NCBI GenBank assembly: GCA_902385635.1 | Contig: CABMGN010000008.1 | Location: 130,894 to 194,893 of the forward strand | Direction of reading: 5' to 3' | Source of the DNA: an uncultured archaeon | GTDB lineage: Archaea; Nanobdellota; Nanobdellia; Pacearchaeales; GW2011-AR1 | Length of the DNA stretch: 64,000 nucleotides | In this document: piece by piece, positions 28,149 through 59,915 of the stretch | Position numbering within the stretch: the stretch's first letter is position 1 | Layout: every line of letters starts with the position of its first letter | Program-made: the position numbers and the translations under genes | Notes under the pieces: model-generated | Told to the model about the DNA's origin: nothing | Seen by the model: the letters and a program-made list of their open reading frames with translations, nothing else | Databases searched by the model: none

Positions 28149-28265
28149 CTAATTTTTAATTTCAGTAGATCTATATTTTCCACCACGGTTATAAGGGTGT
28201 TTCTTTTTCTCTTTTCTCTTATCTTTAGACTTATTTCTTTTTTCAGCGCAGCAGTAGTCTGACAT
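28149..28265 (-). CDS. Possible small basic protein (38 aa)
   Basis: MSDYCCAEKRNKSKDKRKEKKKHPYNRGGKYRSTEIKN fills the gap between the last pilin-like gene and the peptidase. There is no family match or own promoter, so it is speculative. Confidence 0.2.
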   Translation of the reverse strand: MSDYCCAEKRNKSKDKRKEKKKHPYNRGGKYRSTEIKN

Positions 28266-28277
28266 TATTATTTAGAA

Positions 28278-28877: not shown

Positions 28878-28925
28878 GAATTACCTAGCCTTCTTTTGTT
28901 TAAAAAGCTTTTTATGATGTAAGGT

Positions 28926-29830: not shown

Positions 29831-30308
29831 TTTTTTCTCCTTTATTTATAGCAACATCCATATTCACAAAGTACTGAGTACCCTCACTGTCAACAGCGTA
29901 AACTTTTCTGCTCAGACAGTATGGAAGATTTTTTTGATGTCCATTTTTTTGGAGGTCGCAAAAGTCATTCAGCGAAGGGCTTCCTGTTTGATTGCTAAAA
30001 ATAACAGATCCAGTAGAAAAATCAGAGACAACAACAGAAACAAAAAACTGACTGTCATTTTCCCACTTAGCATACTTCTCAGTTTCAAAAGTAAGTTTAC
30101 AATAAGAGAAAAAATCTGGAGCATTAAAAGCATCCATTTTTAGATATAGTTCCGGAATTAAACAGTTAGAAATTTGATAAACAAGGGCGTTTGATTCAAC
30201 TTCACGTATATCATAAGGTTCACCATAAAAATTAGAAACCATATAGACTATTGCACCTGCGACTATAAAGATAATTGCAAACCAATAAACAGACATTACC
30301 TTTTCCAT
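29817..30308 (-). CDS. N-terminally anchored pilus-locus protein
   Basis: 163 aa. MEKVMSVYWFAIIFIVAGAIVYMV has no basic-G leader but is a single N-terminal helix, followed by a Cys-containing globular part. It overlaps both neighbours. Confidence 0.45.
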   Translation of the reverse strand: MEKVMSVYWFAIIFIVAGAIVYMVSNFYGEPYDIREVESNALVYQISNCLIPELYLKMDAFNAPDFFSYCKLTFETEKYAKWENDSQFFVSVVVSDFSTGSVIFSNQTGSPSLNDFCDLQKNGHQKNLPYCLSRKVYAVDSEGTQYFVNMDVAINKGEKNAKL

Positions 30309-30709
30309 TATTCTTTAGTAGTTATTCGCAAGACTAATTTATTTTCTTCAAGATATTTATCAATATTAATCTGTTTAGCATCTCTAAAAAAGGAGTAATC
30401 ATATCCCTTACGCCCGGCGATATTAACATTAACAACATTATTTGTAATAGTAACTACATTCTCGATAGGAACTCCGTTACTTTTCGCTTTTGAAAAGGCC
30501 TCTTCCATATCAAGCTTAATTAGCATCGGAGTTTTAGAGTAATCAACCAAGAGAGCTATCTGTTTAGAATACTGTTCTTCCATTAAAGCCGGACCAGACA
30601 TTTTTGAATAAATAAACAATATTAGAATACTCAAAAAAACCAGATTCAGAATAATAAAAATAAGATTTTCGGTAAGAATTTGTCCGTTTTTATCCCTCAA
30701 TTTCAGCAT
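30308..30709 (-). CDS. Type IV pilin-like protein
   Basis: 133 aa. MLKLRDKNG|QILTENLIFIILNLVFLSILILF. Confidence 0.6.
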   Translation of the reverse strand: MLKLRDKNGQILTENLIFIILNLVFLSILILFIYSKMSGPALMEEQYSKQIALLVDYSKTPMLIKLDMEEAFSKAKSNGVPIENVVTITNNVVNVNIAGRKGYDYSFFRDAKQINIDKYLEENKLVLRITTKE

Positions 30710-30754
30710 ACAAACAAAAGAAGAAGAATATTAATAAACTTTTAGAAAACAAAG

Positions 30755-31498
30755 TTAACCTTTAGTAACATCAAAAAGGTCACAAACCCCGGGGGTAGAA
30801 GGAATATCTTCTACCGCTATAATTGAAGGATGAACTGGAGAAGACTTTTGAAAACCAAACCATTCTAAGTCAGGATTTATTCCGGTTATTATTGCGTATT
30901 TCTTCTTTAAATCCAAGTCAGGGATTGGGTACATTCTACCCTTAGAAGAAAGAGCGTCTTCAACAGTGTTAGTAGAATATAAATAAGAAGCATACGTTTG
31001 AGAAGCATCTTTCTTTTCAAGCTCAAGATAAAGAGTTAGGTCATCTTTAGTTATTGAAATCGAGTTGAGAGAGTCTCCAAATTTAATAATAGAACAAACC
31101 GCACAGTGATAAGAATAACTACCCGAAACACTATTCTGAACATACTTAACATTTCCCTCACCAAACATCATCCAACAATCTGAAAGTTCATTAGCAAGAG
31201 CGCTAAGTATTTGTTTCCGCTCATCTCCGGGGAGTATTTTAATTGTTTCATCTGCCTTAATATCTGTACAAGCCTCACCGCGAGTTATACAAACGTAATT
31301 TGTTTCACAGTTTGGATTTTTACTCACAGGATCTTTTCCTGAGAGGATTACTGATGCCTTGCAGATTTCTCTTTTTGAGTCTTCCTGGAGATTTAAACGA
31401 GAGAGAAAAATAATTATTACTGCAAAACTTAAAACCAAAATGATAAGTGCAACTATCTGAGCAGTAGTTAATTCCCCTTTTTGATTTCTTTTAAACAT
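30755..31498 (-). CDS. Type IV pilin-like protein, Cys-rich
   Basis: 247 aa. MFKRNQKG|ELTTAQIVALIILVLSFAVIIIF, then a globular domain with 9 Cys. Confidence 0.6.
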   Translation of the reverse strand: MFKRNQKGELTTAQIVALIILVLSFAVIIIFLSRLNLQEDSKREICKASVILSGKDPVSKNPNCETNYVCITRGEACTDIKADETIKILPGDERKQILSALANELSDCWMMFGEGNVKYVQNSVSGSYSYHCAVCSIIKFGDSLNSISITKDDLTLYLELEKKDASQTYASYLYSTNTVEDALSSKGRMYPIPDLDLKKKYAIITGINPDLEWFGFQKSSPVHPSIIAVEDIPSTPGVCDLFDVTKG

Positions 31499-31499
31499 T

Positions 31500-31601
31500 T
31501 TAGATTATTGAAAGAGCTTTTAATAAACTGTATAAACCAAATAAAGCAATCATAAAAAATACAACCCAGATTATATATTTTATGAACTCATCAAAATTCA
31601 T
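31500..31601 (-). CDS. Micro-ORF: 33-aa single-TM protein
   Basis: MNFDEFIKYIIWVVFFMIALFGLYSLLKALSII. Its ATG overlaps the upstream TGA (ATGA) and its stop is 1 nt from the next ATG. It is below the ORF-track size cutoff. Confidence 0.35.
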   Translation of the reverse strand: MNFDEFIKYIIWVVFFMIALFGLYSLLKALSII

Positions 31602-32137
31602 TTTTTAGAAACCCCCACAAAAGTTGGATCAGAGTAATCCATCTGTAAATAAGTTGGGGAAGATTTTAGTTCCTCAAACAGATTATACAAAAAGACTTTC
31701 TCTTTATTTTCAGTACAAGACCACTTCGGACATTCTTCTAAAAGATTATCCTGGACATCTGTCCTAAAAATAGGGATAATATTTCCTAGGAGGTCTTTTA
31801 TTCCAAGACTATAAGAAGTTCTACAAATACAAACACAACTTGCCCAACCAACATTAGAGCAACTAGTTGGAAGAGGCCCACCTTCAGCCCAAGCAACAAG
31901 ATAGAATTTATTCAGAGATCCAGAAGTTGGATTAAAAACATCGAAAGTTTCGTGCTTTAAAGAAACTGCTTCATTAAACTTAGAGAGAGTTGACTTTGCC
32001 ATTTCTGCTTCTCTATTTGTAGTATAACTATTATAAATACCGAGAAGGAGGGAGACCAAGAAAATTATGCAAATTACTGCAATAACTATCTTTAAAGTTT
32101 CTTCAGAAAGTAAATTTCCTCTCTTATTGTTCAACAT
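31598..32137 (-). CDS. Type IV pilin-like protein
   Basis: 179 aa. MLNNKRG|NLLSEETLKIVIAVICIIFLVSLLLGI, with a Cys-containing C-terminal domain. Confidence 0.6.
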   Translation of the reverse strand: MLNNKRGNLLSEETLKIVIAVICIIFLVSLLLGIYNSYTTNREAEMAKSTLSKFNEAVSLKHETFDVFNPTSGSLNKFYLVAWAEGGPLPTSCSNVGWASCVCICRTSYSLGIKDLLGNIIPIFRTDVQDNLLEECPKWSCTENKEKVFLYNLFEELKSSPTYLQMDYSDPTFVGVSKK

Positions 32138-32138
32138 G

Positions 32139-32303
32139 TTAAATCAAACTTAAAAAGAATTTACTAACATTTCCTGAAGGCAGACCTTTAATGAAATCTA
32201 TATAATAGTTTTTAAAGAGAAAACTTACACCAATAACAACCAGTACAACAACAAGTATAGCTAGAATCGTTTTAACAAGTTGGCTGACAGTTAATTCACT
32301 CAT
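32139..32303 (-). CDS. Micro-ORF: 54-aa single-TM protein
   Basis: MSELTVSQLVKTILAILVVVLVVIGVSFLFKNYYIDFIKGLPSGNVSKFFLSLI. Its stop is 1 nt from the next ATG, and its start is 1 nt after the upstream stop. Confidence 0.4.
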   Translation of the reverse strand: MSELTVSQLVKTILAILVVVLVVIGVSFLFKNYYIDFIKGLPSGNVSKFFLSLI

Positions 32304-32304
32304 G

Positions 32305-32460
32305 CTAATGCCCCCCAGATTTAAATAAATTTTTAATCATATCTATAGCCGCAATTCCACGGTCCTTACTCAAAGCAATCCCAATAACTAAAATAGTCAA
32401 GACTACAAGAGCAATAATAATCCACGGAAGATAATCCATAACAATCCCTCTTTTCCTCAT
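32305..32460 (-). CDS. Micro-ORF: 51-aa minimal pilin-like protein
   Basis: MRKRG|IVMDYLPWIIIALVVLTILVIGIALSKDRGIAAIDMIKNLFKSGGH is a basic-G leader plus a hydrophobic helix. It is the first gene after the platform protein. Confidence 0.4.
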   Translation of the reverse strand: MRKRGIVMDYLPWIIIALVVLTILVIGIALSKDRGIAAIDMIKNLFKSGGH

Positions 32461-32495
32461 GTAGTTAGTTAAGAAAAAGAATTAATAAATTTAAC

Positions 32496-34724
32496 TTAAG
32501 AACCAAAACCCGTAAGGACAACGGAGGTTAGTACAAATAAGGCGATTGTTGCAAAGAAAGCAACAATAAAGTAAAGAGCAACTCCTGCCTGTAAATTTTT
32601 ACCTGTTTTGTTTACTTTTTCTAATTTATCCTCTCCAGAGTCTACAGCAACAAGGGTATCAGTTAAAATAAAGATTATTTCAATTAGGTAGATACCAACT
32701 ATAATCTGCAAAAAGTATGGTGGGATCATAGACTCCATCTTAAAAATATCTAAGATAGAACTTAAATTCCCTAAACCACTTGCGCCACTTGAGTCAAGTT
32801 GAGAAAGATTTAGCTTTCCAAGTATTGCGGTGATCATAGCTGCAAGACCAACAACAACTCCCGAAAGGAGCGGGGCTAAGAAAGTCATATTGCTCTTCAT
32901 ATCAGAAACAATTTCTGCGAGCATATCTCTAAGTCTAGCGCTTATCTTCTGAATATTTTTAACATACTCTGAAATGCTCATTAAAGAAATAGCCGCAACA
33001 TCTAATCCTTTTTTAGAAGATTCTATAAGAACCCTCATACTTGTCGCGATTAGTTCTGAAGGATAGTAAATTATTGCGCCGCGATTAGGATCAAAGATAG
33101 CTTTCTCTACACTCATACCCAACTGACGGATATTGTAATTGACTCTTCTAAAAAAATCCTCGGTCTTCAGACCCTTAGTAGACTCTGCAACATTTGCGAA
33201 GACTAACTCAGGAGGAACACCATTACCAATTCTGTTTCCTAACTGGAATAAAGAGCTATTAAATTCAGCTTCTAATTCTTTTGTTTTCTCCCTCTCAACA
33301 ATCAATTCTTTTGTTTTCCATCTATACGAAAGAGCAAAAAACAAACCCAGCCCAAGAGGAACAAACATTCCCATCAGAACAGAACCTATACCAAAAGGAC
33401 CAGCATAACTTCCATTAGCTAATTTAATGAAACCAAAAAGTTTCTCAGCACCCAAAGATTCCATTCCAGTTATGTCTCCTAATGATGGGTCATAAGGTTG
33501 TCCTGCGGAAGATAATCCTAACCAATGAGGTAGTGGGGTATAACCCATTAACAAGGGGAGAAACCCTATAATTAACAAAGGAAGACAGATTAAGAAAGCT
33601 TTCAGATAAGGTTTATTATCTTTATATTTGTAATAAAGAGGATTTTTTTCTAAAAGCGAGGACTCTCCATACCCCCCAGGTCTCAGGCTCATGACTTTAT
33701 CTGTTAAGAAGAAAACAAAAAAAGGAATCAGTAAATTAAATCCAACAAAAACAATAACCCAATTAATCATTCCCCCCAGCATTGCAGAAGCAAGAGGAAG
33801 CAAAGCAAGCCCCAGTGTTGGAAGGACAACCCCCAGCATGTAAACATTTGTAAGTGGACTTCGAACATTATGAGTAAACTTAAGCATTTTATCATAAACA
33901 CCATCTAAAACAACCTGCAAAGATTTTTCTAGGGTAGTAATTCTACGACCGTTATCTGGCTCAAACAAACTACTCTCGATTAAATGAAATGCCTCTATAA
34001 ACTCTGAAGAATAATCTCTCCAAGTTTCAAGATAGTTATCAAGACTATCCTTGATAGTAGAAAATTTTCCAATTTCAACATTGTAGAAAACTTTTTTGAA
34101 ATCTAAAGAAAGGGGATACTGTAAATGTTGTGAAGCAAAAGCAATCGCTTTCTCTAAATTAGGTGTATGCCTCATATAAACAACAATGTAAAGAATTGCT
34201 GGAACCATCTGAGAACTTGCTTTAAGTCTCCATTTATTTGCAAGTCTTCGCGGATATTCATTCACAAAGTAAAATAAAAATAAAGAAAAGATTAAGATAA
34301 GGAAGAAGAGTAAAAAAGGAAAAGCAGATATTAAATTTCCCAAAAAATCTCCAGTCAGGTTACTTGCTTGAATTATTGCAATCGCTAAACAAATCAAGGT
34401 TCCTACAAAGAAGACTCCAATGAAACTCATAACACCAAGGGTCAGAGCTTGCCAGGGTTCTAAATCAATATGGGCTATCTCTAAATTTTTCTTGACTTTA
34501 TCTTCATCTTTTGCAGAAACTTTTAATTTTATAACACTCCCTAAACTTCTCCCCCATCTTTCGTAACGAGAGAGTTCTGGAGCCATTTCTTCTTTGAATG
34601 TTGTATATTCTCTACTCCAGCCAGAAGAGCTACTAACTGCGTCTGTTTTTATCTGGCCTTCAATCTTAGCCCCATACTTGTTAAGAATATCCCTCACCTC
34701 TGGTTTTTTTTCATCACTAGACAT
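32496..34724 (-). CDS. Polytopic pilus platform protein (T2SS-F / FlaJ / TadC-like), enlarged
   Basis: 742 aa. A cytoplasmic N-domain is followed by at least 9 predicted TM helices in two clusters separated by soluble helical regions. Its position next to the secretion ATPase is typical for the platform subunit. Confidence 0.6.
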   Translation of the reverse strand: MSSDEKKPEVRDILNKYGAKIEGQIKTDAVSSSSGWSREYTTFKEEMAPELSRYERWGRSLGSVIKLKVSAKDEDKVKKNLEIAHIDLEPWQALTLGVMSFIGVFFVGTLICLAIAIIQASNLTGDFLGNLISAFPFLLFFLILIFSLFLFYFVNEYPRRLANKWRLKASSQMVPAILYIVVYMRHTPNLEKAIAFASQHLQYPLSLDFKKVFYNVEIGKFSTIKDSLDNYLETWRDYSSEFIEAFHLIESSLFEPDNGRRITTLEKSLQVVLDGVYDKMLKFTHNVRSPLTNVYMLGVVLPTLGLALLPLASAMLGGMINWVIVFVGFNLLIPFFVFFLTDKVMSLRPGGYGESSLLEKNPLYYKYKDNKPYLKAFLICLPLLIIGFLPLLMGYTPLPHWLGLSSAGQPYDPSLGDITGMESLGAEKLFGFIKLANGSYAGPFGIGSVLMGMFVPLGLGLFFALSYRWKTKELIVEREKTKELEAEFNSSLFQLGNRIGNGVPPELVFANVAESTKGLKTEDFFRRVNYNIRQLGMSVEKAIFDPNRGAIIYYPSELIATSMRVLIESSKKGLDVAAISLMSISEYVKNIQKISARLRDMLAEIVSDMKSNMTFLAPLLSGVVVGLAAMITAILGKLNLSQLDSSGASGLGNLSSILDIFKMESMIPPYFLQIIVGIYLIEIIFILTDTLVAVDSGEDKLEKVNKTGKNLQAGVALYFIVAFFATIALFVLTSVVLTGFGS

Positions 34725-34790
34725 AATAAATCACCACTGATATCTACGATAAAATAAGAACTTTTGATTAATAAACCTTCTTTTTTAGAA

Positions 34791-35540
34791 TTACTTTATC
34801 TTAAAGGTTGCACTTACTCTTGCGCTAACATCCTGGTCAGAAGGAGTTAAATTAGAAACAGCATCTTTAGCAACAGTTGCTTCAGCAGTCATTGCTCCCC
34901 CCATATTAGTATAAAGATTTCTTGGGGCATAATAATACTCATCAACAGAAACAGAAACTAACTTCCCAACCTGCTTTCCGAATCCTTCTGCAAGGGCCTG
35001 GGCTTTATTCTGAGCATCATCAGAAGCAAGTTTTATCGCTTGAGACTTATACTCTGATTGTTTTGTAGGACTCAACTCAAAGTTAATGGAGTTTATCTGT
35101 GCGCCAGCAGCTACTCCAGAATCTATTGCTTCACTAACTTTGTCAAAATTTTCTGAAGGTAATTCTAATTGAAGTGTATGCGTAGCTTTAAATCCATTTT
35201 TAGTGCTCTTTCCGTTTATCCACTCGATATTTTCATATATACTAAAAGACTGTGTTTGTAATTTATCAGAAGAAATTCCAACTTTATCCAGCTCTGCTTT
35301 CAATTTATCAAAAACCAAGTCATTCTTATCTTTTGCATCTTGACTAGTTGTTCCTTGAGTCTCGATACTATAATAGATTGTGATTAAGTCGGGAACAGCC
35401 TTAACAACCCCCGAACCCTGAACATTAACCGTATCAGAATAATTCTGGGGAGCAAATTGATTAAATGCGAAATATCCCAGAATAGCTACGATTAAAATCG
35501 TTGCACAAATTAACAAGGTAATCTTCACGCCTTTTTCCAT
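34791..35540 (-). CDS. SIMPL (DUF541) domain protein, N-terminally anchored
   Basis: 249 aa. A TM anchor, then VNVQGSGVVKAVPDLITIYYSIETQGTTSQDAKDKN... and the C-terminal VSARVSATFKI, which is the SIMPL/26-kDa periplasmic-antigen-like pattern. Confidence 0.7.
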   Translation of the reverse strand: MEKGVKITLLICATILIVAILGYFAFNQFAPQNYSDTVNVQGSGVVKAVPDLITIYYSIETQGTTSQDAKDKNDLVFDKLKAELDKVGISSDKLQTQSFSIYENIEWINGKSTKNGFKATHTLQLELPSENFDKVSEAIDSGVAAGAQINSINFELSPTKQSEYKSQAIKLASDDAQNKAQALAEGFGKQVGKLVSVSVDEYYYAPRNLYTNMGGAMTAEATVAKDAVSNLTPSDQDVSARVSATFKIK

Positions 35541-35574
35541 AGGTAGTAAAATAAGGCTAGGTTTTTAATTATTT

Positions 35575-37863
35575 CTACAGTTTTCTCTTTTTAACTTCTT
35601 GATTTAACCACTTCTGCCATTCAGGAAAGACCCTTTCCCCGGTAGGTAAACCTATGTCTTCCATTACACTCTCAGAAATTTGATGGAAAGCGTTATTTGA
35701 CAAAGCATTAAATTCAGACTCAAGTATTTTTTCATTTCCAAGCTTCTTAGAGATATCTACAATCTCTTTTTTTATTTTTGCCCTTAGAAGAATGTTATCA
35801 TAAACCGCATCCCAGTTTCCAGCCCAACCTTTAACATTAGAAGCTATATCTTTTACAATTTCAGAGTCTCCATTAATCAAATCGTCTGTTGGTTCTAGCT
35901 CATCTTTCTCAACATTATATTTTACGAGGTCGACAAAACCCTGTTCTGCTACAGGATCTTCTTTCCAGTGTTTCCTGATCTCAGATATTTGCAAAAGTCT
36001 TCTCATAAATTTCAATCCGTCAGGGGTTTTAATTGGATTTGCAACAGCAATAATATCTGTCGCTTTGAAACTTGTAGCTGGAACATTGAGATCATTTACA
36101 ACTCTGTCAAAAACACCATACGGGCTTGCACCGTGAATCGTACCTGCAACAACATTTGCTAGGGCACCAACCCTCATGGCCTCGTAAAGCGCTTTTGCTT
36201 CCTCACTTCTTACTTCACCAATAATTAAAGAGGAATCACCTAAACGCAAGCTTGTTCTGATCCCATCCTCTGCAGAAACCTCATTTGAAGTTTTAACCAT
36301 GGCAGATCTAACTTTCATCCTAACAATATTATAATTTAACTTCCTCAAGCTCTCAACAGGCAATTCTGGAGTATCCTCAATAACAACCATCCTATACTTC
36401 GGGATAATTTCTAACATCAAACTTCCCAGAAGGGAAGTTTTACCCGAAGACCTCGTACCAGCAACAAGCAAAGTTCTAGACCCGTCAATTAAAAAACTAA
36501 AGAGCCCTGCCCCGAACGGGTTCAACATTTTATTTTTAATAAAAAGAGGTAAAGTCCACGGATCCTCCCTATGTCTTCTGACTGCATAAGAAAGACCATC
36601 CATCGAAAGAGGTCTCTGGATAATTGCTATTCTTGCTCTCAAAGTTCCTATTTCTAGTTGAGTATCTAAGATTGGATTCGCTTCATCAAGCGGCCTTCCA
36701 GAGATCATTCTAAATTTAGCTGCCCAAGAATCAGTATCTTCCTGACTAGGAAGAATATTTGTTGTACACTCCCCATAATCGCCGTGTCTTAAAAAAATAT
36801 TTGTCTGAGGAATGGGGGCATTCAAATAAATATCCTGTAATTTTTTGTCTTGAAGAAGAACCTCAACAACACCAAAGCCAATAGTATGTCTAACTAAAAT
36901 AGTCGCAAGCTTATTTAGTCCAGCATAATCAAGATCAATGTTTTTCGTCTGAGCTAAGTCTTGAAGGAGATCTTTAGAGATATTAAAAAAAACTTGCCTA
37001 GTCCTCTCGGTGTCAGTAAACTCCTCTGCCTTGGGTTGATGCTCCATCAAAACAACTCGGGCCAAGTTTAGTAACAAGGTATAATCCTCCTCAAGAGTAT
37101 TTTCTGGAGGCGTAAGATGATAAATATATTTAGATTCGCTCTTCTTCTTCAAAATAGTTACTAAAGATTCATCAAAACTTTCTTGAGCAATTTTATACTG
37201 GTCAATAATCTCAGAATCATCTGGCAAGTCTAAAACAAGACGAGTAAAAGTAAAGTTAGGTATTGTATCTGCTTTGAAAATTTTATCATAAATTTCTCTA
37301 CTCCCCCGTTTGTAATCTCCAAGATACTGGAAAAGGTCACGAAGGATTTTAGTAGACTCCATTAGCTCAAAAGTCTTCATTAACAAATGCAAGTAACCAA
37401 CCTCATCTACCTTCCTTTTTTCAGGAAGTTTATCAATAAAGATTCTTTCTTCAATAAGAAGTTTTTTCAAATCATGATATGCTGCTACGGGGTCCTGCTT
37501 TAAGAGGAAAAGAAAAGAAAAGACATCATTATACCTTCTAGCAAAATCCTCATCACTTGTTGCAAATAAAGACTGCCTAGAAAGAATTTTTTCCTGTTTA
37601 ATTAAATAAACATAAATTTGAGCAAGCTCAATGAGATAGTTTGTTTCTTGTTTGTCATAATTATAATTTTTCTGTTGCACAAAGACAATTCTTGAAACAT
37701 TTGGATTCTCTATAAGAGCATCCACAGTTTTAGCCATAACATCAGCAGATTCTGCTATGTTTGGAACAAATGAAGCCCCCAGGTAATTAACATATAAAAT
37801 ATCTTCCCCCCCTTCCCTTTCAACCTGATGGGCATAAAGTGGAGACCCCTCTTTAAATTCCAT
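35575..37863 (-). CDS. Type II/IV secretion-family ATPase (FlaI/PilB/VirB11-like) with ~430-aa N-terminal and ~150-aa C-terminal extensions
   Basis: 762 aa. Walker A LLVAGTRSSGKTSLLGSL, Asp box VVIEDTPEL, Walker B LIIGEVRSEEA, His box AGTIHGASP. Confidence 0.85.
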   Translation of the reverse strand: MEFKEGSPLYAHQVEREGGEDILYVNYLGASFVPNIAESADVMAKTVDALIENPNVSRIVFVQQKNYNYDKQETNYLIELAQIYVYLIKQEKILSRQSLFATSDEDFARRYNDVFSFLFLLKQDPVAAYHDLKKLLIEERIFIDKLPEKRKVDEVGYLHLLMKTFELMESTKILRDLFQYLGDYKRGSREIYDKIFKADTIPNFTFTRLVLDLPDDSEIIDQYKIAQESFDESLVTILKKKSESKYIYHLTPPENTLEEDYTLLLNLARVVLMEHQPKAEEFTDTERTRQVFFNISKDLLQDLAQTKNIDLDYAGLNKLATILVRHTIGFGVVEVLLQDKKLQDIYLNAPIPQTNIFLRHGDYGECTTNILPSQEDTDSWAAKFRMISGRPLDEANPILDTQLEIGTLRARIAIIQRPLSMDGLSYAVRRHREDPWTLPLFIKNKMLNPFGAGLFSFLIDGSRTLLVAGTRSSGKTSLLGSLMLEIIPKYRMVVIEDTPELPVESLRKLNYNIVRMKVRSAMVKTSNEVSAEDGIRTSLRLGDSSLIIGEVRSEEAKALYEAMRVGALANVVAGTIHGASPYGVFDRVVNDLNVPATSFKATDIIAVANPIKTPDGLKFMRRLLQISEIRKHWKEDPVAEQGFVDLVKYNVEKDELEPTDDLINGDSEIVKDIASNVKGWAGNWDAVYDNILLRAKIKKEIVDISKKLGNEKILESEFNALSNNAFHQISESVMEDIGLPTGERVFPEWQKWLNQEVKKRKL

Positions 37864-50265: not shown

Positions 50266-50634
50266 TTACTCCGAAGCGTGATTCATTTTTACATCTCTAA
50301 AACCAAGGCCCGTTTCTTCAACAACTTGATTTTTTACAGAGATTCTTTTTTTGTTCAACTCACGAATAGCTATAGCCCTTCTTCCAACTTCTTCCAAACC
50401 TAACTCATTTTCTTTACCACGCCTAACATCAGATTCTAAATCCCAGATCTTTCCATTTATTTCATGTAAGGTTTTAATCCAGGCAGGATCTATTTTAACA
50501 CCCTTAGATTCAAATTCTTCCAAAGCTTTTTCATACTCAGACATTTCTAATTTTAAATGAGGCTCGCCGATTCTTTCAATTTTCAATTTAAGGATACTCA
50601 TTCTATCAAGAATCTCGGGTAAAGGCATTTCCAT
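50266..50634 (-). CDS. Helical hypothetical protein (DUF4254-like pattern)
   Basis: 122 aa. LHEINGKIWDLESDVRRGKENELGLEEVGRRAIAIRELNKKRISVKNQV resembles the H-x-N-x-x-W-x-x-E-D-x-R helix pattern. The family call is weak. Confidence 0.35.
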   Translation of the reverse strand: MEMPLPEILDRMSILKLKIERIGEPHLKLEMSEYEKALEEFESKGVKIDPAWIKTLHEINGKIWDLESDVRRGKENELGLEEVGRRAIAIRELNKKRISVKNQVVEETGLGFRDVKMNHASE

Positions 50635-52671: not shown

Positions 52672-53733
52672 TTAGTTATTTTTAGGATAAGCTTCATCAA
52701 TTAATTTTCTCTGTTTTTCTAACTTAGAACGAAGGGGGGATATAAATAAAATTATTTCTTCCGCAATACCCTGCTTTAGATCAATCGAAGATAACTTCTT
52801 ACTAGAAAAGGCTTTTTCAACTTCAAGGTAACTCTTAAATTCTATTTTTCCCCCGTATTTATCCGGGCGATTAATCACAAAGGGCCTATTCTTTTTTTCT
52901 AATTCTCTAAAAAGGATATATTTAAGGATTGCAAGTAAACCATTTCCTTCAACGATTCCATCAACACAGTAAGCTTTGTTTATTTTCTGTCTAATCACCT
53001 GATCTGAGTCCTCGAAATCTATTTTAGAATTTGGCTCAGAAGAGCTCATTTTTCCAGATTCGCTTAAACCCGGAATTAGTGGATTCATAAGATGAATCCT
53101 TTTCTCATAACCAACTGCAGGTAAAAATTCTCTCGCAAACATAAAAATCTTTCTCTGATCAACCCCCCCAAATTGAGCATCAACTTTAAGGTATACTTCA
53201 TCAAGTGCTTGGAGTATAGGATACAAAAGTCCGCTCATCTTAGGGTTTTCAAGTTGTTTAACAACTTCCGCCCCTGCTTTTTGTGTATCTTTTGTGGTAG
53301 CCAAGGCAGACATTTTGTAAACATCTAAAGTATACTTTTCAGAAAGCTGGAAATCTGTACCTTTCACAAATTTAAGCTTAGTTAAAGGAACCCCTGCAGA
53401 AGAAAGCATTTCTTTGATGAGAAATTCGTAATATTTTGTCCTCTTGTCTAATAAGTCCCAGGAAGTTTTCATATTATCAAGATATGCGTGAATGTTGGCA
53501 AAAAGAATGGTAACATCACAACCTGCTTCTAAAAAATCAGCAATCTTATACATCGGAACAAAATATCCCAGGTGGGGTTTTCCAGTTGGGGCAGTACCCC
53601 AGTATATAGAAAAACTTTTTTGTGACTTCAATTTTTTGTTTAAATCTTCTAAACCAACAACCTCTTGAAGATTCTTTGTTATAAGACTAGATTTTTCTTC
53701 AGTATTCAATTCTTTCTTTACAGGTTTACTCAT
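52672..53733 (-). CDS. tyrS: Tyrosyl-tRNA synthetase (archaeal/eukaryotic type)
   Basis: 353 aa. YWGTAPTGKPHLGY (HIGH-type motif), QFGGVDQRKI and KMSSS (KMSKS motif). Confidence 0.9.
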   Translation of the reverse strand: MSKPVKKELNTEEKSSLITKNLQEVVGLEDLNKKLKSQKSFSIYWGTAPTGKPHLGYFVPMYKIADFLEAGCDVTILFANIHAYLDNMKTSWDLLDKRTKYYEFLIKEMLSSAGVPLTKLKFVKGTDFQLSEKYTLDVYKMSALATTKDTQKAGAEVVKQLENPKMSGLLYPILQALDEVYLKVDAQFGGVDQRKIFMFAREFLPAVGYEKRIHLMNPLIPGLSESGKMSSSEPNSKIDFEDSDQVIRQKINKAYCVDGIVEGNGLLAILKYILFRELEKKNRPFVINRPDKYGGKIEFKSYLEVEKAFSSKKLSSIDLKQGIAEEIILFISPLRSKLEKQRKLIDEAYPKNN

Positions 53734-53771: not shown

Positions 53772-54800
53772 TCATTCAGCAAGCATAACCCTATTTCTAC
53801 CAGATTCTTTAGCTTTGTAAAGTGCGCTATCCACTCTTTTAATAAAAGATTCTACATTTTCTTCTTGTTTTATTTCTCCAACACCCAAACTAACAGTAAC
53901 CTGTCTCTTAGCTTTTTCCGGATAAAATGTTTCAACAGCTTGTCTAAAAGTTTCAGCAGTAGTTATAGCTTCTTCTAAACTATTTTCCAAAATAAAAGCA
54001 AATTCTTCCCCCCCGTACCTACAAGCCCTAACCTTTCTAAACTCTGTAGAAATAAGTTGACCTAAATTTCTAAGAAGATTATCCCCTTCGACATGTCCGT
54101 AAGTGTCGTTATAACTCTTAAAGAAATCCAAATCCAACATAACTAAAAATATTTTATTTCCTTTTTCATACTCAGAATTTATAAGTTCAGTAAAATACCG
54201 TTTATTAAAGAGTCCAGTAAGAGCGTCTGTTACAGCTTTCTTGGCTTCCTTATCGTATAATTTATTATATAACTGAGTGATTGTTTGCTCCTTCAAACTT
54301 ACGGCTTGCTTAAGTTTTAAGTGATCAACCAGAGAAGCAGTTTGATTTGCGATTGTTCCAAGGAGCTTAGAAGAAGAATATGAAAAATTATAATCTCTAT
54401 TCATGACAACAATACAACCAATACATCCAGTATAAGTCATAAGCGGGGCGCTAATAAAACTTTTTATTCCAAAAAGTGAAGCCACGGTCCCGTATCTTGT
54501 TTCTTCTATAAGAAGAGGAGAAGCACTCAAGACAGTGTCATTCGCAATTGTTTGAACTAAATCATAAAAACCCGGTTCAAGAGAGTATACCCCCTCAAAA
54601 TTCCTCGCACGAAGACCTTCCTGATCTTTTAAAAAAATAAAAACATAATGGGTATTAAACTCACCAATAAGAATTTTTGCGATTTTATTTAGAGTAACAT
54701 CAATATTCTCAGTAGAGCTAGAAATTTCCTGAATAATTTTGATGATGCGAAGCTCTCTAGAGGTATAAACTAATTTTTTAAGAACATCTTCGTCAGGCAT
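53772..54800 (-). CDS. GAF-GGDEF diguanylate cyclase
   Basis: 342 aa. An N-terminal GAF-like sensor is followed by the canonical GGDEF domain: DALTGLFNKRYF, LVMLDLDFFKSYNDTYGHVEGDNLL, ACRYGGEEFAFIL and VSLGVG. No RxxD I-site is present 5 residues upstream of GGEEF. Confidence 0.8.
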   Translation of the reverse strand: MPDEDVLKKLVYTSRELRIIKIIQEISSSTENIDVTLNKIAKILIGEFNTHYVFIFLKDQEGLRARNFEGVYSLEPGFYDLVQTIANDTVLSASPLLIEETRYGTVASLFGIKSFISAPLMTYTGCIGCIVVMNRDYNFSYSSSKLLGTIANQTASLVDHLKLKQAVSLKEQTITQLYNKLYDKEAKKAVTDALTGLFNKRYFTELINSEYEKGNKIFLVMLDLDFFKSYNDTYGHVEGDNLLRNLGQLISTEFRKVRACRYGGEEFAFILENSLEEAITTAETFRQAVETFYPEKAKRQVTVSLGVGEIKQEENVESFIKRVDSALYKAKESGRNRVMLAE

Positions 54801-54865
54801 AAAGATCCATCAAAGAAACTCTTTTTAAGCATTGTCAAATTTTAGTATACAGATAGGATTAATCT

Positions 54866-57800
54866 CTAAAACCACTTCTGTAACCCTTCTTGTTTTTCTA
54901 TCTCTTTACCAAAAATGCTATCAATAGCTTCTTTAGTTAATTCTACGCTCTGCTTAATATACGGAGAAAGATTATATTTCTTAATTAAATCAAGAGCAGG
55001 ATCTAAATATTTTCTTATCCCCCCCTCGTGAATTGTGAAAATAATTTTACCCTTACACTTTGGACAAACACCCGAAAGGGGGGGTCTCCTCATAATCTCA
55101 TTACAATCAACACATCTAAAACCCTGCATTGAAAACTTTCTTAAATTACCCCTCATATCCGAGATAAAATGCCTCTCAATAACAAGTCTTGCAACATCAC
55201 TCTCAGTAACTGCTCTAATCTTTTCTACAAGTTCCATCTGGTGTTTTAATTTATCCTGCATGGTTGCAAGAGTTTTATAACTAGAACATAGAACACCATC
55301 ATTAAAATTAGAAGTATCATGAGTAAACCCGAAACCAACGAACGGATTTTTTCCTTCTTTCAAAATCTGCTTAACATTGTAAATCTTTACTTTAGAAGAG
55401 TGCTCCCTTGTTTCAGCCAAGCGATACATTTCAAGAGGATAATGTCCATCTTTAATAAACTCGAAATCTAAAATCTGATCATCAACTTCCCCAGCATCAA
55501 TTTTAGCATTTAAAACAAGAGGGGCGTCTTGAGTTCCACCCCTATGCCCCGGTAGAAATTCTCTAGAAAAATTAAGCAGAACATCTCCTAAAAGCATGAT
55601 AGCTGCCTCGTCACCATCACAATCTCTCCTCACAGCCGCATGCATAAAGGGGCTTGCAAATAAACCGAGAGTGTTAGAAAATCCTATAAATCTACAAACA
55701 ACTCCCGCGCAGTTATGGGGGGCCATGCATACCCCAAGATGGCCTATCAAGTCCTCCTTCTTTTTTATGTTATAAAAAGGTTGTAACCCATAGAACTTAA
55801 CTAAGAGGTCATCAATAAAATCACACACTTTATGAAAAACATCATCAGCCCTTTCATCCGGGGTATCGGTACAACTAGGCAAAAGAACATCATGAGGCAT
55901 CAATTCCAGAATTTGGTTCTCATCAACTAACTCTTTATCATAAATATCTAAGTCATACCCTAGTTCTCGAAGTTTTTTAACACTAACACCAATTTCCTTA
56001 GGTTTAAATGAAACTATAGGTAACTCCGTAGCATCAAATCTAACTGTTCCGTCCTTGTTTACCTGAAGATCATACTTTGCACGAAGGATACCCTTTTCTA
56101 AATGTTCAGTAGCGTGAGAATCTGAGGAAGTTCCTCTAATCCCTTTTATTAATGGAGGCAATTCTTCCCGCCTCATATTCAATTTCTTTAAAGCAGTTTG
56201 AAGATAATAATTAATATCCAAATTTTGTGAGCAATAGCAGCTACCTTCCTTTTCACATTCCGAAATATTTTTTTCAGAAGATTTTCTTCCAAGTTCATAA
56301 AAGTAATATTGTTTTTTTGCTGGAAACCCACAAGTTTCACAAGAAGGAAAAATAGTTTCTTTACTACATTTTTCACAGAAATAAAGAGGGAAATCTCCTT
56401 TGACAAAACCCTTCTCACACGCCGTATTCAAACTCCTTAATTTTCCACCCTCCCAACCCACGGGGAAGAGAGTATTTGGACTACCAGTAAGTTTTCTAAG
56501 TTTAGCCTTTTCCGGACGGCCCATCCTAGTTCCGATGAAATCTCCAGATTTGTCCTTAATAAAAAACTTAGAAAAAGAATTAACAACTTCTAAAATAGAC
56601 TTATCCTCAGTAAAGGCCGCCTCAAACAAATTCTTATCAAAAAGTTCAGAAAGAAAAAAGTCTACTCTGCTAGAAACAAGGTTAAAGTCCAAACCAAGAT
56701 TAGAAAAAAGAATCTTGGCTGCAGGCTCTCCAACAATAACATGTTCTAAAGAAAGATCGTGTTCAAGTCCTAACAGTTCTAAGGCTCTTTTACCTTCCTT
56801 AAATTTTTCTTGCTCTGCTTTATTGAAAGGCAAAATTATTTTTCCAGAAATTCTTGAGTATGAAAGCCAAGAGATAAGATTCAAAAATTGATCCTTAGAA
56901 ATTTCAGACCAATAAATAATAAATTTAGGGTTCAAAGGAATTTCATATTTCAAACTTATATCTGCGGCCTCTTCTAAACTAACTGAAAAAGGATTAATAA
57001 TTTTAGAGAACTCCAGGTCCTTCTCTGCCAGGTCTAGGTGCCACCACTCCTCAACATAACCTGGCTTAATTAGCGCGTGATTCCTATTTGCAAGATCGCT
57101 AAATGGAAAGAGGATATCCCCTAAGTAAATTATTTCTTCTATGTCTGAATAAACCTTTCTAGCCTCTTCAAGACTTTTCAATTTTCTTACATTTCCATTA
57201 AACAATTTTACAATCGGCCCGTCAACAACGTCTGAACTAGTGATAGCACAGCCCTTTGTTGGTTTCTCAATCTTCAATTGTGTTCCAATAGCAATAAAGT
57301 CGTCTGTAACTGCCATAGTGGCGGGATGTAACGAAGCAGCAGAAAATCCAGAAGTCCTTCCCCGGCCATACCTAAACCTAAACGCTCCCGAACGAGAAGG
57401 GTGTCCAAATACCGGTCTTCCAGCTACGAGATCTTTAATATAAGTAGGGCTAGAATCAGTTTTTCCAGTATCTCTCTTTTTGTGCAATTCAACATAATCC
57501 TTCAAAAAATCCCAATCAGTTAACTTAAATCCCTTCTCTCTTACAGAAGTAATATATCTCTGAATTTTTGGGGCTTTCTGCGCTAGACCCTCCCCAATAA
57601 CAAGGCAAAAACCACCACGAATAAAATTTGTTTCTATTCTGCTAAGATTTTTGTAATTTGAAACTTCTAATTTTTCAGAAGGTTCCCCATTTACTTGTAA
57701 AGGAATATTTCTAGCTAAAAAAAGGCACTCTTCTTCCGTCGGCATATACTGCAAGTTAGTAATTCTCTCGTGATAGTCCGCAAGTTCTGTTGCAGTTCTC

Positions 57801-58366
57801 TTAATTTCTTCTTCAGTAGGGTCATATTTTACAAAACCAAAAACTTCTCTAAGATGGTCTAGTATTACAAGAGAAAACGCTGCACCAGTACCTCCTGCGC
57901 TTCTAACCGGGCCAGAGTAGTAAGCGGAAAGGTATTCTTTTCCTTCCCTAGTTTTCATTATTTTAACTTCAGTTAGACCCTCGATAGGGCTAGAAACTAC
58001 TCCTAGAGTAATATATGCAAAAGCGATTCTTGTTCCCGCATCTATAGCCTGGATCAAGCTATCAAACTTACAAAACTTTTGCTTAGCTACTTCTTCAGCA
58101 ATCTGCAAACAAATTGCAGGGTCTAATTTCCCCCACTGCTTCTCAAGCTCGGTAATTCTCTCAGCAATACCCGCGCCCATCATCTGGGGATAAATAGTAG
58201 AAATTAAACCAACAACTTTCTCCGCCATAGACATAGCTAGAGGAATTTCAACTTTGCTTTTAGGATCTAGATTCTTACTTCTAGCTTCTTCAGCAATAAG
58301 ATAAACTCTATCAACGTCGGATTTCAAGTTTTTGAAATATTGTTCTGTGTTCATTTTATTGCTCAA
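54866..58366 (-). CDS. dp2: DNA polymerase II (PolD) large subunit DP2
   Basis: 1166 aa. The conserved N-terminus (YF..L...VDRVYLIAEEARSKNLDP...AMSMAEKVVGL), internal zinc fingers (CEKCSKETIFPSCETCG; CVDCNEIMRRPPLSGVCPKCKG) and DCDGDE. The contiguous length gives no sign of an intein. Confidence 0.92.
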   Translation of the reverse strand: MSNKMNTEQYFKNLKSDVDRVYLIAEEARSKNLDPKSKVEIPLAMSMAEKVVGLISTIYPQMMGAGIAERITELEKQWGKLDPAICLQIAEEVAKQKFCKFDSLIQAIDAGTRIAFAYITLGVVSSPIEGLTEVKIMKTREGKEYLSAYYSGPVRSAGGTGAAFSLVILDHLREVFGFVKYDPTEEEIKRTATELADYHERITNLQYMPTEEECLFLARNIPLQVNGEPSEKLEVSNYKNLSRIETNFIRGGFCLVIGEGLAQKAPKIQRYITSVREKGFKLTDWDFLKDYVELHKKRDTGKTDSSPTYIKDLVAGRPVFGHPSRSGAFRFRYGRGRTSGFSAASLHPATMAVTDDFIAIGTQLKIEKPTKGCAITSSDVVDGPIVKLFNGNVRKLKSLEEARKVYSDIEEIIYLGDILFPFSDLANRNHALIKPGYVEEWWHLDLAEKDLEFSKIINPFSVSLEEAADISLKYEIPLNPKFIIYWSEISKDQFLNLISWLSYSRISGKIILPFNKAEQEKFKEGKRALELLGLEHDLSLEHVIVGEPAAKILFSNLGLDFNLVSSRVDFFLSELFDKNLFEAAFTEDKSILEVVNSFSKFFIKDKSGDFIGTRMGRPEKAKLRKLTGSPNTLFPVGWEGGKLRSLNTACEKGFVKGDFPLYFCEKCSKETIFPSCETCGFPAKKQYYFYELGRKSSEKNISECEKEGSCYCSQNLDINYYLQTALKKLNMRREELPPLIKGIRGTSSDSHATEHLEKGILRAKYDLQVNKDGTVRFDATELPIVSFKPKEIGVSVKKLRELGYDLDIYDKELVDENQILELMPHDVLLPSCTDTPDERADDVFHKVCDFIDDLLVKFYGLQPFYNIKKKEDLIGHLGVCMAPHNCAGVVCRFIGFSNTLGLFASPFMHAAVRRDCDGDEAAIMLLGDVLLNFSREFLPGHRGGTQDAPLVLNAKIDAGEVDDQILDFEFIKDGHYPLEMYRLAETREHSSKVKIYNVKQILKEGKNPFVGFGFTHDTSNFNDGVLCSSYKTLATMQDKLKHQMELVEKIRAVTESDVARLVIERHFISDMRGNLRKFSMQGFRCVDCNEIMRRPPLSGVCPKCKGKIIFTIHEGGIRKYLDPALDLIKKYNLSPYIKQSVELTKEAIDSIFGKEIEKQEGLQKWF

Positions 58367-59915
58367 AGTCTAAAATTTTAATTGCACCTGTTTTAAGATT
58401 CAAAATAGGGACTTTACAAAAATCTGGAATAGCTCCCCTCTTTTCCTGATAAGCAGTCATTGATTCCCAAGAAGACACAGAAATAACTAATATGTTATTG
58501 TAATAAGTTATACCCGACTTATGGGTATGTCCCGCAAGAAATATATCCGGCACTGTTCGAATTATATGAGAATCTTTTTCTTGAGGAAAATACTGAGTAG
58601 AAGAGTGTGTAGGGCAAAGGTGCCTATTCTTAAGAAGATAAGTCATTACTAACTCCGGAGCATGCGCAGCTTTCTGCTTAATTAGGCTAGGTATATTATC
58701 TACGTAATGGAAAAAAGAGAATCCGTGATACGTCAAAGCATTAAATCCAGAAAAACCTTTTTTTGCAGCAAAATTAACTAAGGACGGATTTGTTGTAAAA
58801 ATTACATTTTTTAAATTATAGAGTGGCCAAGCATACTTTTCACTTATCATTGGTTGAGGTTCCATTAAACGTACTCCGTCGTGATTTCCGCTTGAGATAA
58901 TAATTTTAATGTCGGGTCTTATTTTTCCCAGAAGTTCTGCGGCTTTTTCAAAATGACTTTCTAAATCCGGAAGGCAAATTTGTTTTTCTTGATTGGGATA
59001 ATTACCAACACCCGTGATTACGTCCCCAATAACAAAGAGATATTTTATTTTTTGGACCTCGGGCGTATTTGGAACCTTACCATTGAGGTATTCTATAAAC
59101 TTTAGGAATTGTTCTTCCATAAAAAGTTTACTCCCAATATGCATATCCCCAATAAATACAGCATACTCTTCAACAGGGGATCTTTTCCGTTCAGGAAGTG
59201 ACGCTTCTGGAAGAATAACCTCATTAACAAAAAAGATCTCTCTGCTTCCAGCGCCCTTAAAACCAACAACACTATCTAAAGCGAGGTCTTCTGCTTTAGC
59301 ATAAAGCTCTTTTTTGTCTTTGTTTATTAAAACTTTTATTTTCCCAGTAAGATCCTCAACTTCTAACATAAGATTTTTGTTTTTAGTTACTTTTTTGTCT
59401 GCAATCAGACCAATTATAGAAATCCCCTGGCGGTCGTTAGAAATTTTATTTATTGAAACAAGGTTAGTAAGCTCTGAATGCTCTTGTAGGATGTTTCTTA
59501 ATTCAACGAATCTTCCTTTAAAGTACCCAACAAAATCAGAGACCGTTAGTTTTTTGCTAACAGGCTCAAAATTAGACAAAACCCTAACACTAGAAACTTC
59601 TTCAGGAGAAGTAGAAACCGCAGTAGAAGAAACTTCCTTACAAATTTCTATACTCAAACCAAGATTGATCCGAAGTTTTTCAAAATCTTGTCTGTATTGG
59701 GCTGGAAGAATTTCTAAGATTTGATTTACTTGTTCCCTATTCTCCAAAAGTATATGTTTTGTTAGAATTTTACTTGTTGGATTAGACTCTCTTACCTTCT
59801 CAATAATAAGCTTAGCCGACTCAAAGTCTTGGGTTTCACTAAACAGGCTAAGAACTTCTTTATCAACAAGCAAACCTTTCTTTAAGCAGTATGCTAGAAC
59901 TTCTTTTGTCTCCAC
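58356..59915 (-). CDS. dp1: DNA polymerase II (PolD) small subunit DP1 (3'-5' exonuclease)
   Basis: 519 aa. An OB fold plus calcineurin-like phosphoesterase motifs FIGDMHIGS, VIGDV, SGNHD and AGHTH. It overlaps DP2 by 11 nt. Confidence 0.88.
   Translation of the reverse strand: METKEVLAYCLKKGLLVDKEVLSLFSETQDFESAKLIIEKVRESNPTSKILTKHILLENREQVNQILEILPAQYRQDFEKLRINLGLSIEICKEVSSTAVSTSPEEVSSVRVLSNFEPVSKKLTVSDFVGYFKGRFVELRNILQEHSELTNLVSINKISNDRQGISIIGLIADKKVTKNKNLMLEVEDLTGKIKVLINKDKKELYAKAEDLALDSVVGFKGAGSREIFFVNEVILPEASLPERKRSPVEEYAVFIGDMHIGSKLFMEEQFLKFIEYLNGKVPNTPEVQKIKYLFVIGDVITGVGNYPNQEKQICLPDLESHFEKAAELLGKIRPDIKIIISSGNHDGVRLMEPQPMISEKYAWPLYNLKNVIFTTNPSLVNFAAKKGFSGFNALTYHGFSFFHYVDNIPSLIKQKAAHAPELVMTYLLKNRHLCPTHSSTQYFPQEKDSHIIRTVPDIFLAGHTHKSGITYYNNILVISVSSWESMTAYQEKRGAIPDFCKVPILNLKTGAIKILDFEQ

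Follow-up and report, generated by a model that had tools for sequence, protein, structure and literature searches.

A native, conserved family of probable GAF-gated diguanylate cyclases in Pacearchaeota-type DPANN archaea

Introduction

The gene that is the subject of this study lies on the minus strand at positions 53772..54800 of a 64-kb stretch of DNA from an uncultured archaeon (contig CABMGN010000008.1; the whole stretch is called the window throughout) and encodes a complete 342-residue protein in which a GAF-like domain precedes a GGDEF domain, as read from the list of open reading frames (ORFs) and from Pfam and NCBIfam matches. Downstream lies tyrS (52672..53733, minus strand), encoding an archaeal-type tyrosyl-tRNA synthetase (TyrRS) identified by the equivalog NF006330 (323 bits against a cut-off of 220), and upstream lies the gene for the large subunit DP2 of the DNA polymerase PolD (54866..58366, minus strand), identified by the Pfam PolC_DP2_N, central and catalytic domains and itself preceded on that strand by PolD DP1 at 58356-59915, whose identity likewise comes from Pfam. 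The cyclase, tyrS and DP2 genes share one strand, with gaps of 38 nt between cyclase and tyrS and 65 nt between cyclase and DP2. A preliminary description of the window, made from the sequence letters alone, had named the same two neighbours and the same spacing, and both agree with the family assignments and, to the nucleotide, with the ORF coordinates. The gene is not new to the databases: a contig of 262,881 bp in GenBank already carries the identical protein, VVB80144.1, under the automatic annotation ‘Diguanylate cyclase, GGDEF domain [uncultured archaeon]’.

What makes the gene worth attention is therefore not the enzyme, a canonical member of a well-known kind, but its host, in which it belongs to a native and conserved family encoded in reduced archaeal genomes. 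Reviews up to 2023 describe diguanylate cyclases as almost exclusively bacterial. A Methanocella protein was the only archaeal GGDEF that Galperin et al. (2018) accepted, and they left open whether other matches in metagenome-assembled genomes (MAGs) were contamination; over 300 BLAST matches among Asgard and DPANN archaea were later mentioned without analysis (Braun et al., 2021); and archaeal GGDEF proteins were said to ‘need to be confirmed’ (Roemling, 2022). The premise of the preliminary description, that signaling by cyclic di-GMP (c-di-GMP) is essentially bacterial and that archaeal GGDEF domains are rare, is thus in line with a literature that treats the archaeal examples as unconfirmed. 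The literature searched yielded no paper that treats GGDEF proteins from Pacearchaeota, Woesearchaeota or Nanoarchaeota.

In this study, we draw on family models, predicted and experimental structures, comparison of orthologous loci, promoter and codon analysis and phylogeny to describe the architecture, residue conservation, genomic setting, selection and descent of this family, and we propose how its members may dimerise, what they would make in the cell and what might lie downstream. Overall, we consider that the gene probably encodes an active, sensor-gated, cytosolic diguanylate cyclase native to a Pacearchaeota/Nanoarchaeota-type DPANN archaeon.

Domain architecture and predicted fold

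The whole of the Pfam GGDEF model (PF00990) is matched, model positions 1-161 of 161 aligning with residues 189-337 (E=1.3e-37; score 129.5 bits, cut-off 23.8), and the NCBIfam model TIGR00254 reaches 147.5 bits (cut-off 37.4). The Pfam GAF model PF01590 matches residues 33-155 at 30.1 bits (cut-off 22.4), while a second GAF model, PF13185, stays under its cut-off (25.6 against 28.6 bits). The reading of a GGDEF domain placed behind a GAF-like sensor, made in the preliminary description, is therefore borne out by curated matches to both domains. An AlphaFold2 monomer model with a mean predicted local distance difference test (pLDDT) score of 82 resolves the chain into three parts. The GAF-like sensor domain spans residues ~14-134 (54399..54761, minus strand), where pLDDT is ~80-96 and the alpha and beta elements succeed one another as in GAF folds; residues 141-182 (54255..54380, minus strand) form one continuous long helix, presumed to be a dimerising signaling helix; and the GGDEF catalytic domain, delimited by Pfam and by comparison with PDB 3ign and with PleD, occupies residues 186-340 (53781..54245, minus strand). 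The protein carries neither a signal peptide nor a transmembrane segment.

The best full-length Foldseek matches of this model are PHY/GAF-coiled-coil-GGDEF cyclases, namely IsPadC (6et7, 5llw) and Dcsbis (4zmu). Dcsbis (PA2771) of Pseudomonas aeruginosa has the same GAF-GGDEF layout and nearly the same length (338-341 residues compared with 342), and it is found both among the top full-length structural matches (E=1.3e-16) and, for the GGDEF half, by sequence (E ~1e-17). It differs in being bacterial, in its identity of only ~24-25% over the structural alignment and in that the archaeal family lacks the RxxD inhibitory site. The bacteriophytochrome-activated cyclase IsPadC (5llw, 6et7) is the best structural match. 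Its GAF/PHY-type sensor is joined to GGDEF by a long coiled coil, and activity depends on the register of this linker, which is the mechanistic model that we adopt for the archaeal cyclase; IsPadC is, however, much larger and carries a biliverdin-binding PAS-GAF-PHY photosensor, whereas the archaeal GAF domain shows neither a conserved Cys nor any other sign of a bilin site. Catalysis by GGDEF cyclases requires that they homodimerise by way of an N-terminal domain or helix. The closest structures are coiled-coil dimers, and the archaeal protein may homodimerise through its 42-residue helix.

By sequence, the best PDB matches of the GGDEF domain are 3ign (E=1.4e-30) and PleD (E=1.7e-26), both with residue-level alignments. 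The GAF half gave chance-level matches only when compared with the PDB by sequence, with no informative relatives and no clue to a ligand; the residues of the GAF region that are invariant across the family include D88, T89, S114, S117, P119, L120 and M121.

Catalytic residues and expected product

The preliminary description had called the catalytic domain intact-looking on the strength of three motifs, all of which are present: DALTGLFNKRYF at residues 192-203, DLDFFKSYNDTYGHVEGD at residues 223-240 and RYGGEEFAFIL at residues 261-271. Together with the full-length Pfam match, the retention of the catalytic residues on alignment sustains that reading. We assigned residue equivalences by alignment to PleD and 3ign, and scored conservation in 26 orthologues that span 47-100% identity. 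The metal-binding residues D223 and D225 correspond to PleD D327 and D329, the conserved active-site Lys K228 to K332, the guanine-recognizing N231 and D240 to N335 and D344, and the phosphate-binding K331 and R335 to K442 and R446. In the A-site, R261 corresponds to PleD R366 and the GGEEF motif of residues 263-267 (54000..54014, minus strand, as read from the sequence) to PleD 368-372; the whole stretch R261-Y-G-G-E-E-F267 is the same as the PleD motif and is invariant, GGEEF included, in 26/26 orthologues. Likewise invariant in all of them are D223, D225, K228, N231, D232, H236, D240, R261, K331, R335 and N336. On this alignment, every residue that catalysis would require is present and invariant.

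Two further positions bear on regulation and on the product. The RxxD inhibitory I-site, which would lie five residues upstream of GG[D/E]EF, is absent: the window protein has RKVR and 26/26 orthologues have [R/K]xx[R/K], so that classical product inhibition is not expected. The contrast with Caulobacter PleD (1w25, 2v0n) is instructive, as the two proteins share the catalytic, metal, guanine and phosphate residues and RYGGEEF, and differ in their control: PleD is gated by phosphorylation and two receiver domains with feedback through R359xxD362, the archaeal protein by a GAF domain with RKVR at the equivalent site. Hypr enzymes carry a Ser at the position of PleD D344. Those GGDEF proteins, such as GacA of Geobacter (PDB 6d9m is a Geobacter GGDEF), have the same fold and catalytic motif, but no Ser is found at this position among the 26 orthologues, where D240 is invariant. 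The retained Asp makes specificity for GTP more likely, and a Hypr-type synthase of cyclic GMP-AMP (cGAMP) less so. The caution of the preliminary description that the product may not be c-di-GMP at all loses weight given invariant N231 and D240 and the missing Hypr Ser, and on these sequence features we think it likely that the enzyme makes c-di-GMP in vivo.

A native archaeal gene

The gene order around the cyclase recurs in assemblies from other sequencing runs. The orthologue P0002 (90% identity; locus L005, run SRR29054604) lies in the order DP1-DP2-GGDEF-tyrS-PLD-GTPase-...-M16-arginase, as in the window, and the orthologue P0003 (73% identity; locus L006, run ERR7850080) keeps the window order plus one TctA gene between DP2 and the cyclase. 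This inserted TctA-family transporter gene (8752-9909 of L006, minus strand) is seen in this relative only, and the cyclase promoter box is still conserved there. More distant orthologues sit amid other archaeal housekeeping genes, encoding RsmF, a PUA methyltransferase, MetAP, CDC48, FEN1, a family-B polymerase and leucyl-tRNA synthetase, on contigs of 420-710 kb that include the chromosome-type record CP061211.1 (710,724 bp). The remainder of the window is archaeal as well, with genes for Cdc6/Orc1, RadA, GINS51, aIF2-alpha, EF-1-beta, S3Ae and a FlaI-like ATPase, and the named close homologues of its DP2 all come from Pacearchaeota, Nanoarchaeota or Nanobdellota archaea (66-73% identity).

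In composition, the cyclase gene does not stand out from its surroundings: its GC content of 0.337 and third-position GC content (GC3) of 0.236 compare with window means of 0.345 +/- 0.024 and 0.260 +/- 0.034, its codon-usage distance to the remaining window ranks 6th of 20 similar-sized genes, and a break in composition at the gene borders was looked for and not found. Upstream of the gene, a TATA-like box, CTTAAAAAG (54821..54829, minus strand), 22-29 nt before the ATG, is the presumed archaeal promoter; it is kept in all three loci that share the synteny, also where a different gene lies upstream, and an equivalent box, TTTAAAAA or TTTATAAA, stands at the same distance in the distant orthologues of loci L001, L002 and L007. 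A TATA box at such a distance from the start is the established archaeal promoter architecture for leaderless mRNA. Across the window, TATA-like boxes (TT[AT]A[AT]A[AT]) show a sharp maximum at -29/-28 from start codons (21/69 called ORFs), which implies that most transcripts of the window are leaderless. We infer by this analogy that the box of the cyclase would be an archaeal TATA promoter giving a leaderless mRNA. The neighboring tyrS has a TATA-like box of its own, ttttaatatt, about 20-29 nt upstream of its ATG. In loci L001, L087 and L088, a Shine-Dalgarno-like motif near the start is lacking in all but two gene upstream regions.

The ratio of nonsynonymous to synonymous substitution (dN/dS) is 0.05-0.12 for the cyclase and 0.03-0.10 for the flanking genes, rough values of omega given that dS is saturated (>1). 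Because synteny, composition, archaeal-type promoter and archaeal surroundings all agree, we regard the gene as almost certainly native to the archaeon. A bacterial contaminant, or an assembly chimera that misplaced a bacterial gene between archaeal ones, would be in keeping with the overwhelmingly bacterial distribution of GGDEF genes and with the warning of earlier authors that archaeal MAG matches may be contamination. It is contradicted by the gene order shared with the independent assemblies from SRR29054604 and ERR7850080, by the orthologues amid archaeal housekeeping genes on contigs of 420-710 kb, by composition and codon usage that match the window with no break at the borders, and by a TATA-like box at the distance typical of the genome. 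We consider this explanation extremely improbable and already refuted, and the judgement of the preliminary description that the gene is not an assembly chimera now rests on shared synteny in three independent assemblies, native composition and an archaeal-type promoter.

An orthologous family and its history

A search of 5.8 billion proteins delimits the family to 27 clusters at 90% identity, full-length at ~340 residues and 47-100% identical. At the first bacterial match, the score falls abruptly from 333 to 143 bits, and the bacterial proteins align over the GGDEF half only. Where a source name is given for the family members it is ‘Candidatus Pacearchaeota archaeon’, and one GTDB representative is labelled Woesearchaeota. 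Scanning GTDB genomes with the motif patterns RYGGEEFA and DFFK.YND, which are generic and yielded mostly bacterial GGDEF proteins among the matches listed, added at least one further archaeal orthologue (L007) among those listed. When 1.84 billion representatives at 50% identity were searched exhaustively with a profile, matches of the family type in a single stretch were confined to the main cluster, two divergent full-length proteins (P0129 and P0131) and two fragment representatives (P0027 and P0133), the other matches being multi-domain bacterial proteins. P0129 and P0131 look archaeal too, because the genes around them have TATA-like boxes at about -26 to -30 and near-absent Shine-Dalgarno-like motifs (one gene only has one), and because P0131 adjoins LonB and Kae1.

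The phylogeny against bacterial homologues that the preliminary description had called for was built by neighbour-joining. In the tree of the whole GAF-GGDEF module, the archaeal core family is monophyletic in 98/100 bootstraps (support is weaker in a GGDEF-only tree, weighed below), the core joins P0129 and P0131 in 93/100, and the window protein forms a sub-clade with P0002 and P0003 in 100/100. The genes occur in two synteny types, the PolD/tyrS setting of the window's sub-lineage and, in the others, a position between RsmF/PUA methyltransferase genes and MetAP-CDC48; in both groups, the rank order of cyclase divergence is that of the neighboring housekeeping genes, RsmF, MetAP and CDC48 among them. 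Several very long contigs with a DP2 close to that of the window are not among the contigs that carry the family; its distribution among DPANN lineages may be patchy.

Monophyly, parallel rank order of divergence and purifying selection together indicate that a bacterial GAF-GGDEF module was acquired once, long ago, and has since passed down vertically, its position changing at least once. The suggestion of horizontal acquisition in the preliminary description thus holds as regards a bacterial origin and fails as regards a one-off insertion, the gene being a member of an ancient, vertically inherited, DPANN-restricted orthologous family. As that description had allowed, such genes prove to be common in some sub-lineages of Pacearchaeota, where they are automatically annotated; that they are already characterised does not follow, as we found no characterising paper. 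Earlier GGDEF domains attributed to archaea, namely Methanocella arvoryzae CAJ37382 and the BLAST hits in Asgard and DPANN MAGs, were single sequences or raw counts accompanied by doubts over contamination, whereas the present family comes with synteny, selection, promoter and monophyly (we set it apart from CAJ37382 by the published description of that protein).

Search for pathway partners

Pfam scans of the window, run on 69 greedily called, non-overlapping ORFs of at least 70 residues, found no EAL, HD-GYP, PilZ or MshEN domain and no second GGDEF domain, in keeping with the preliminary description, which had recognized no EAL, HD-GYP or PilZ domain there. Regular expressions for the MshEN and PilZ motifs had no match in the window, and Rfam gave four tRNAs only and no c-di-GMP riboswitch. 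In about 120 kb of related loci, the Pfam tables likewise contained no EAL, HD-GYP, PilZ or MshEN domain, and no riboswitch was found. No gene is linked to the cyclase in all loci, both synteny types consisting of housekeeping genes, and in none of the loci examined is it linked to genes for export, secretion or defence. A relaxed Pfam scan of unannotated small ORFs near the cyclase in relatives turned up nothing receptor-like; one of these ORFs encodes a zinc-ribbon protein and accompanies the CDC48 gene. The PADLOC defence models gave only the expected weak similarity to the Cas10 palm, and the idea of a defence system was abandoned on that ground.

One gene in the window was considered as a degrading enzyme. 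DHH-DHHA1 enzymes can degrade pGpG and cyclic dinucleotides, and the DHH/DHH-CID/DHHA1 protein at 14702-16048 (plus strand) was a candidate pGpG or dinucleotide phosphodiesterase; it was rejected, the CID domain marking it as a replication nuclease of the GAN/Cdc45-RecJ-like kind.

In bacteria, c-di-GMP controls type IV pilus-like machines, and a type IV pilus/archaellum-like locus lies at 27266-37863 of the window, comprising an A24 prepilin peptidase, pilin-like ORFs and a FlaI/TadA-like ATPase. The peptidase gene (27266-28111) is followed by at least six small ORFs with N-termini resembling class-III signal peptides (28278-32137), by a gene for a 742-residue protein with no family match (32496-34724, minus strand), by a SIMPL/DUF541 protein gene (34791-35540) and by that for the 762-residue FlaI/TadA-like ATPase (35575-37863). 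The N-terminal ~250 residues of the ATPase have no family match, and no match to MshEN in particular. No link between this locus and the cyclase was seen in the window.

A second family of short GGDEF proteins in related genomes

At locus L002, a 207-residue GGDEF protein is encoded 7 kb from the GAF-GGDEF gene. It belongs to a stand-alone family of 55 clusters (about 200-230 residues) whose named members are all from Pacearchaeota and which has no bacterial match; members lie at 18327-18950 of L002 (minus strand), 10001-10636 of L090 (plus strand) and 10001-10624 of L091 (plus strand), and none lies in the window. The family occurs on contigs equal in length to six that carry the GAF-GGDEF family, often with the two genes 4-7 kb apart across the MetAP-CDC48 block, which they flank in both L002 and L090.

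The alignment of the short family retains DxLTGLLNK, DxD, WN, VD and ‘AGDEF’ and lacks the canonical C-terminal strand and helix, while its N-terminus (ItVSCGIG...AKKxKGK) resembles the missing C-terminal piece. Its AlphaFold2 model (pLDDT 85, predicted template modelling score 0.83) runs beta4-alpha4-beta5 and then alpha0-alpha1-beta1-alpha2-beta2-beta3-alpha3; a weak second alignment by hhalign (E=0.04) places the N-terminus on the canonical beta4 strand; Foldseek aligns only ~124 residues in sequence order; and a manually de-permuted sequence is matched by Pfam GGDEF at model positions 1-146 with 48.7 bits, compared with 1-110 at 38.3 bits for the native sequence. From the order of elements in the model, together with the hhalign, Foldseek and de-permuted Pfam results, the short family appears to have the GGDEF fold in circularly permuted form, the C-terminal beta-alpha-beta unit having moved to the N-terminus. 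No paper on a circularly permuted GGDEF domain was found in the literature searched. The short family is a candidate partner of the GAF-GGDEF cyclase in these relatives.

Proposed mechanism and alternative explanations

We propose that the N-terminal GAF domain would bind a small ligand, and that the signal would travel along the ~42-residue helix, arranged as a parallel coiled coil in a homodimer. Ligand binding may shift the register of the linker helices and so set the relative orientation of the two C-terminal GGDEF domains, each of which would hold one GTP-Mg2+, the pair condensing two GTPs to 3',5'-cyclic di-GMP. There would be no classical feedback by the product, and the level of output would depend on what the GAF domain senses, on how the gene is transcribed from an archaeal promoter of its own, and on turnover. 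As to its history, an ancestor would have gained the bacterial GAF-GGDEF module long ago, after which the gene would have been inherited vertically under purifying selection in a Pacearchaeota-like subset and would have changed its chromosomal position at least once.

Several observations count against this proposal and temper our confidence in it. The GAF match barely exceeds its cut-off (30.1 against 22.4 bits). Support in the GGDEF-only tree is modest, the core and P0129 grouping in 27/40 bootstraps and the core alone being missing from the point-estimate tree; all trees are neighbour-joining only, and saturated dS leaves the omega values rough. A complete signaling circuit is not demonstrated, since the sampled DNA (the window and about 120 kb of related loci) contains no phosphodiesterase, receptor or riboswitch of this pathway, and c-di-GMP has been detected in no archaeon according to a 2023 review.

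Other explanations of the protein were weighed. It may make a different main product, such as 3',3'-cGAMP, cyclic di-AMP or linear pppGpG, or may act chiefly as a regulator that binds GTP or a dinucleotide: Hypr GGDEF enzymes do make cGAMP, some GGDEF domains are established as receptors or ATPases, neither receptors nor phosphodiesterases for c-di-GMP were found nearby, and the molecule has never been detected in archaea. We find this unlikely, given that guanine-specifying N231 and D240 are invariant where Hypr enzymes carry a Ser at the D344 position, that GGEEF, the metal Asp and the phosphate Lys/Arg are all kept, the signature of a competent synthase unlike that of degenerate receptor GGDEFs, and that the RxxD dinucleotide-binding I-site of receptor-type GGDEFs is absent. 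The same want of intrinsic receptor and degradation genes would suit a c-di-GMP that is not the cell's own messenger and is instead made for a bacterial or archaeal partner, by delivery or release, or for conflict or defence between organisms; the pilus-like apparatus at 27266-37863 could mediate the cell contact, and absence of the I-site would allow a high output. That role, in turn, seems quite improbable for a protein with no signal peptide or transmembrane segment whose gene is unlinked to export, secretion or defence genes in every locus, as a GAF-gated cytosolic enzyme under strong purifying selection has the standard layout of internal signaling. Finally, the gene might be what is left of an old transfer, decaying or already without function, as the failure to identify partner genes in the sampled DNA and the presumed patchy distribution in DPANN could suggest; the reading frame is nevertheless intact in all ~27 clusters, the catalytic residues are all invariant, dN/dS is 0.05-0.12, the promoter element is conserved and the gene is retained in genomes of ~0.6-0.7 Mb, a pattern of conservation by which the relic explanation, very improbable in our estimate, is already refuted. 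An active, GAF-gated diguanylate cyclase remains the explanation that we prefer, and the family, as its sequences would have it, is evidently functional.

Further observations at the locus

Several features of the surrounding genes were noted in passing. The ORF finder starts DP2 at a TTG, giving 1166 residues and an 11-nt overlap with DP1; because the GenBank DP2 has 1162 residues, translation probably begins at an ATG 12 nt (four codons) further downstream, which leaves no overlap with DP1. The TyrRS encoded at the same syntenic position in L005 (6393-7493) is only 32% identical to that of the window (52672-53733), whereas that of the more distant L006 is 85% identical, even though L005 is otherwise the closest relative (90% identity for both cyclase and DP1); both score as tyrosine-tRNA ligase, and tyrS seems to have been replaced in place by a xenologue. 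Between the genes for an FmrO-like methyltransferase and a TGS GTPase, both relatives carry a gene for a glycosyltransferase-9-like protein of 298 residues (9536-10432 of L005 and 14174-15070 of L006), in place of which the window has an unrelated 122-residue ORF with a weak DUF6165 match (50266-50634, minus strand), a small gene replacement within otherwise conserved synteny. Elsewhere in the window, the ORFs at 22586-25228, 32496-34724 and 594-2489 (all minus strand; 880, 742 and 631 residues) have no Pfam or NCBIfam match.

Implications

Useless genes are not expected to persist in genomes of ~0.6-0.7 Mb. Because the cyclase is native, conserved, under purifying selection and preceded by an archaeal-type promoter in genomes of this size, the doubt over the authenticity of GGDEF genes in archaeal MAGs is removed for one lineage. 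A bacterial signaling module can, on this evidence, be domesticated by DPANN archaea, and archaeal c-di-GMP signaling becomes directly testable with one small soluble protein of 342 residues. The finding is also relevant to how DPANN archaea, which are presumed symbionts, sense their own state or their partners; the preliminary description had suggested that such a gene might let an episymbiont produce a bacterial-type second messenger.

More tentatively, and at somewhat less than even confidence, we suggest that some Pacearchaeota-type DPANN archaea may possess a signaling system based on c-di-GMP or a closely related cyclic dinucleotide, in which the GAF-gated cyclase would work alongside the short, apparently permuted GGDEF protein and in which receptors and degrading enzymes would lie outside the known c-di-GMP families. 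Such a system, if real, would be the first in Archaea to use c-di-GMP as a second messenger, and it might control the pilus-mediated attachment of these organisms to a host.

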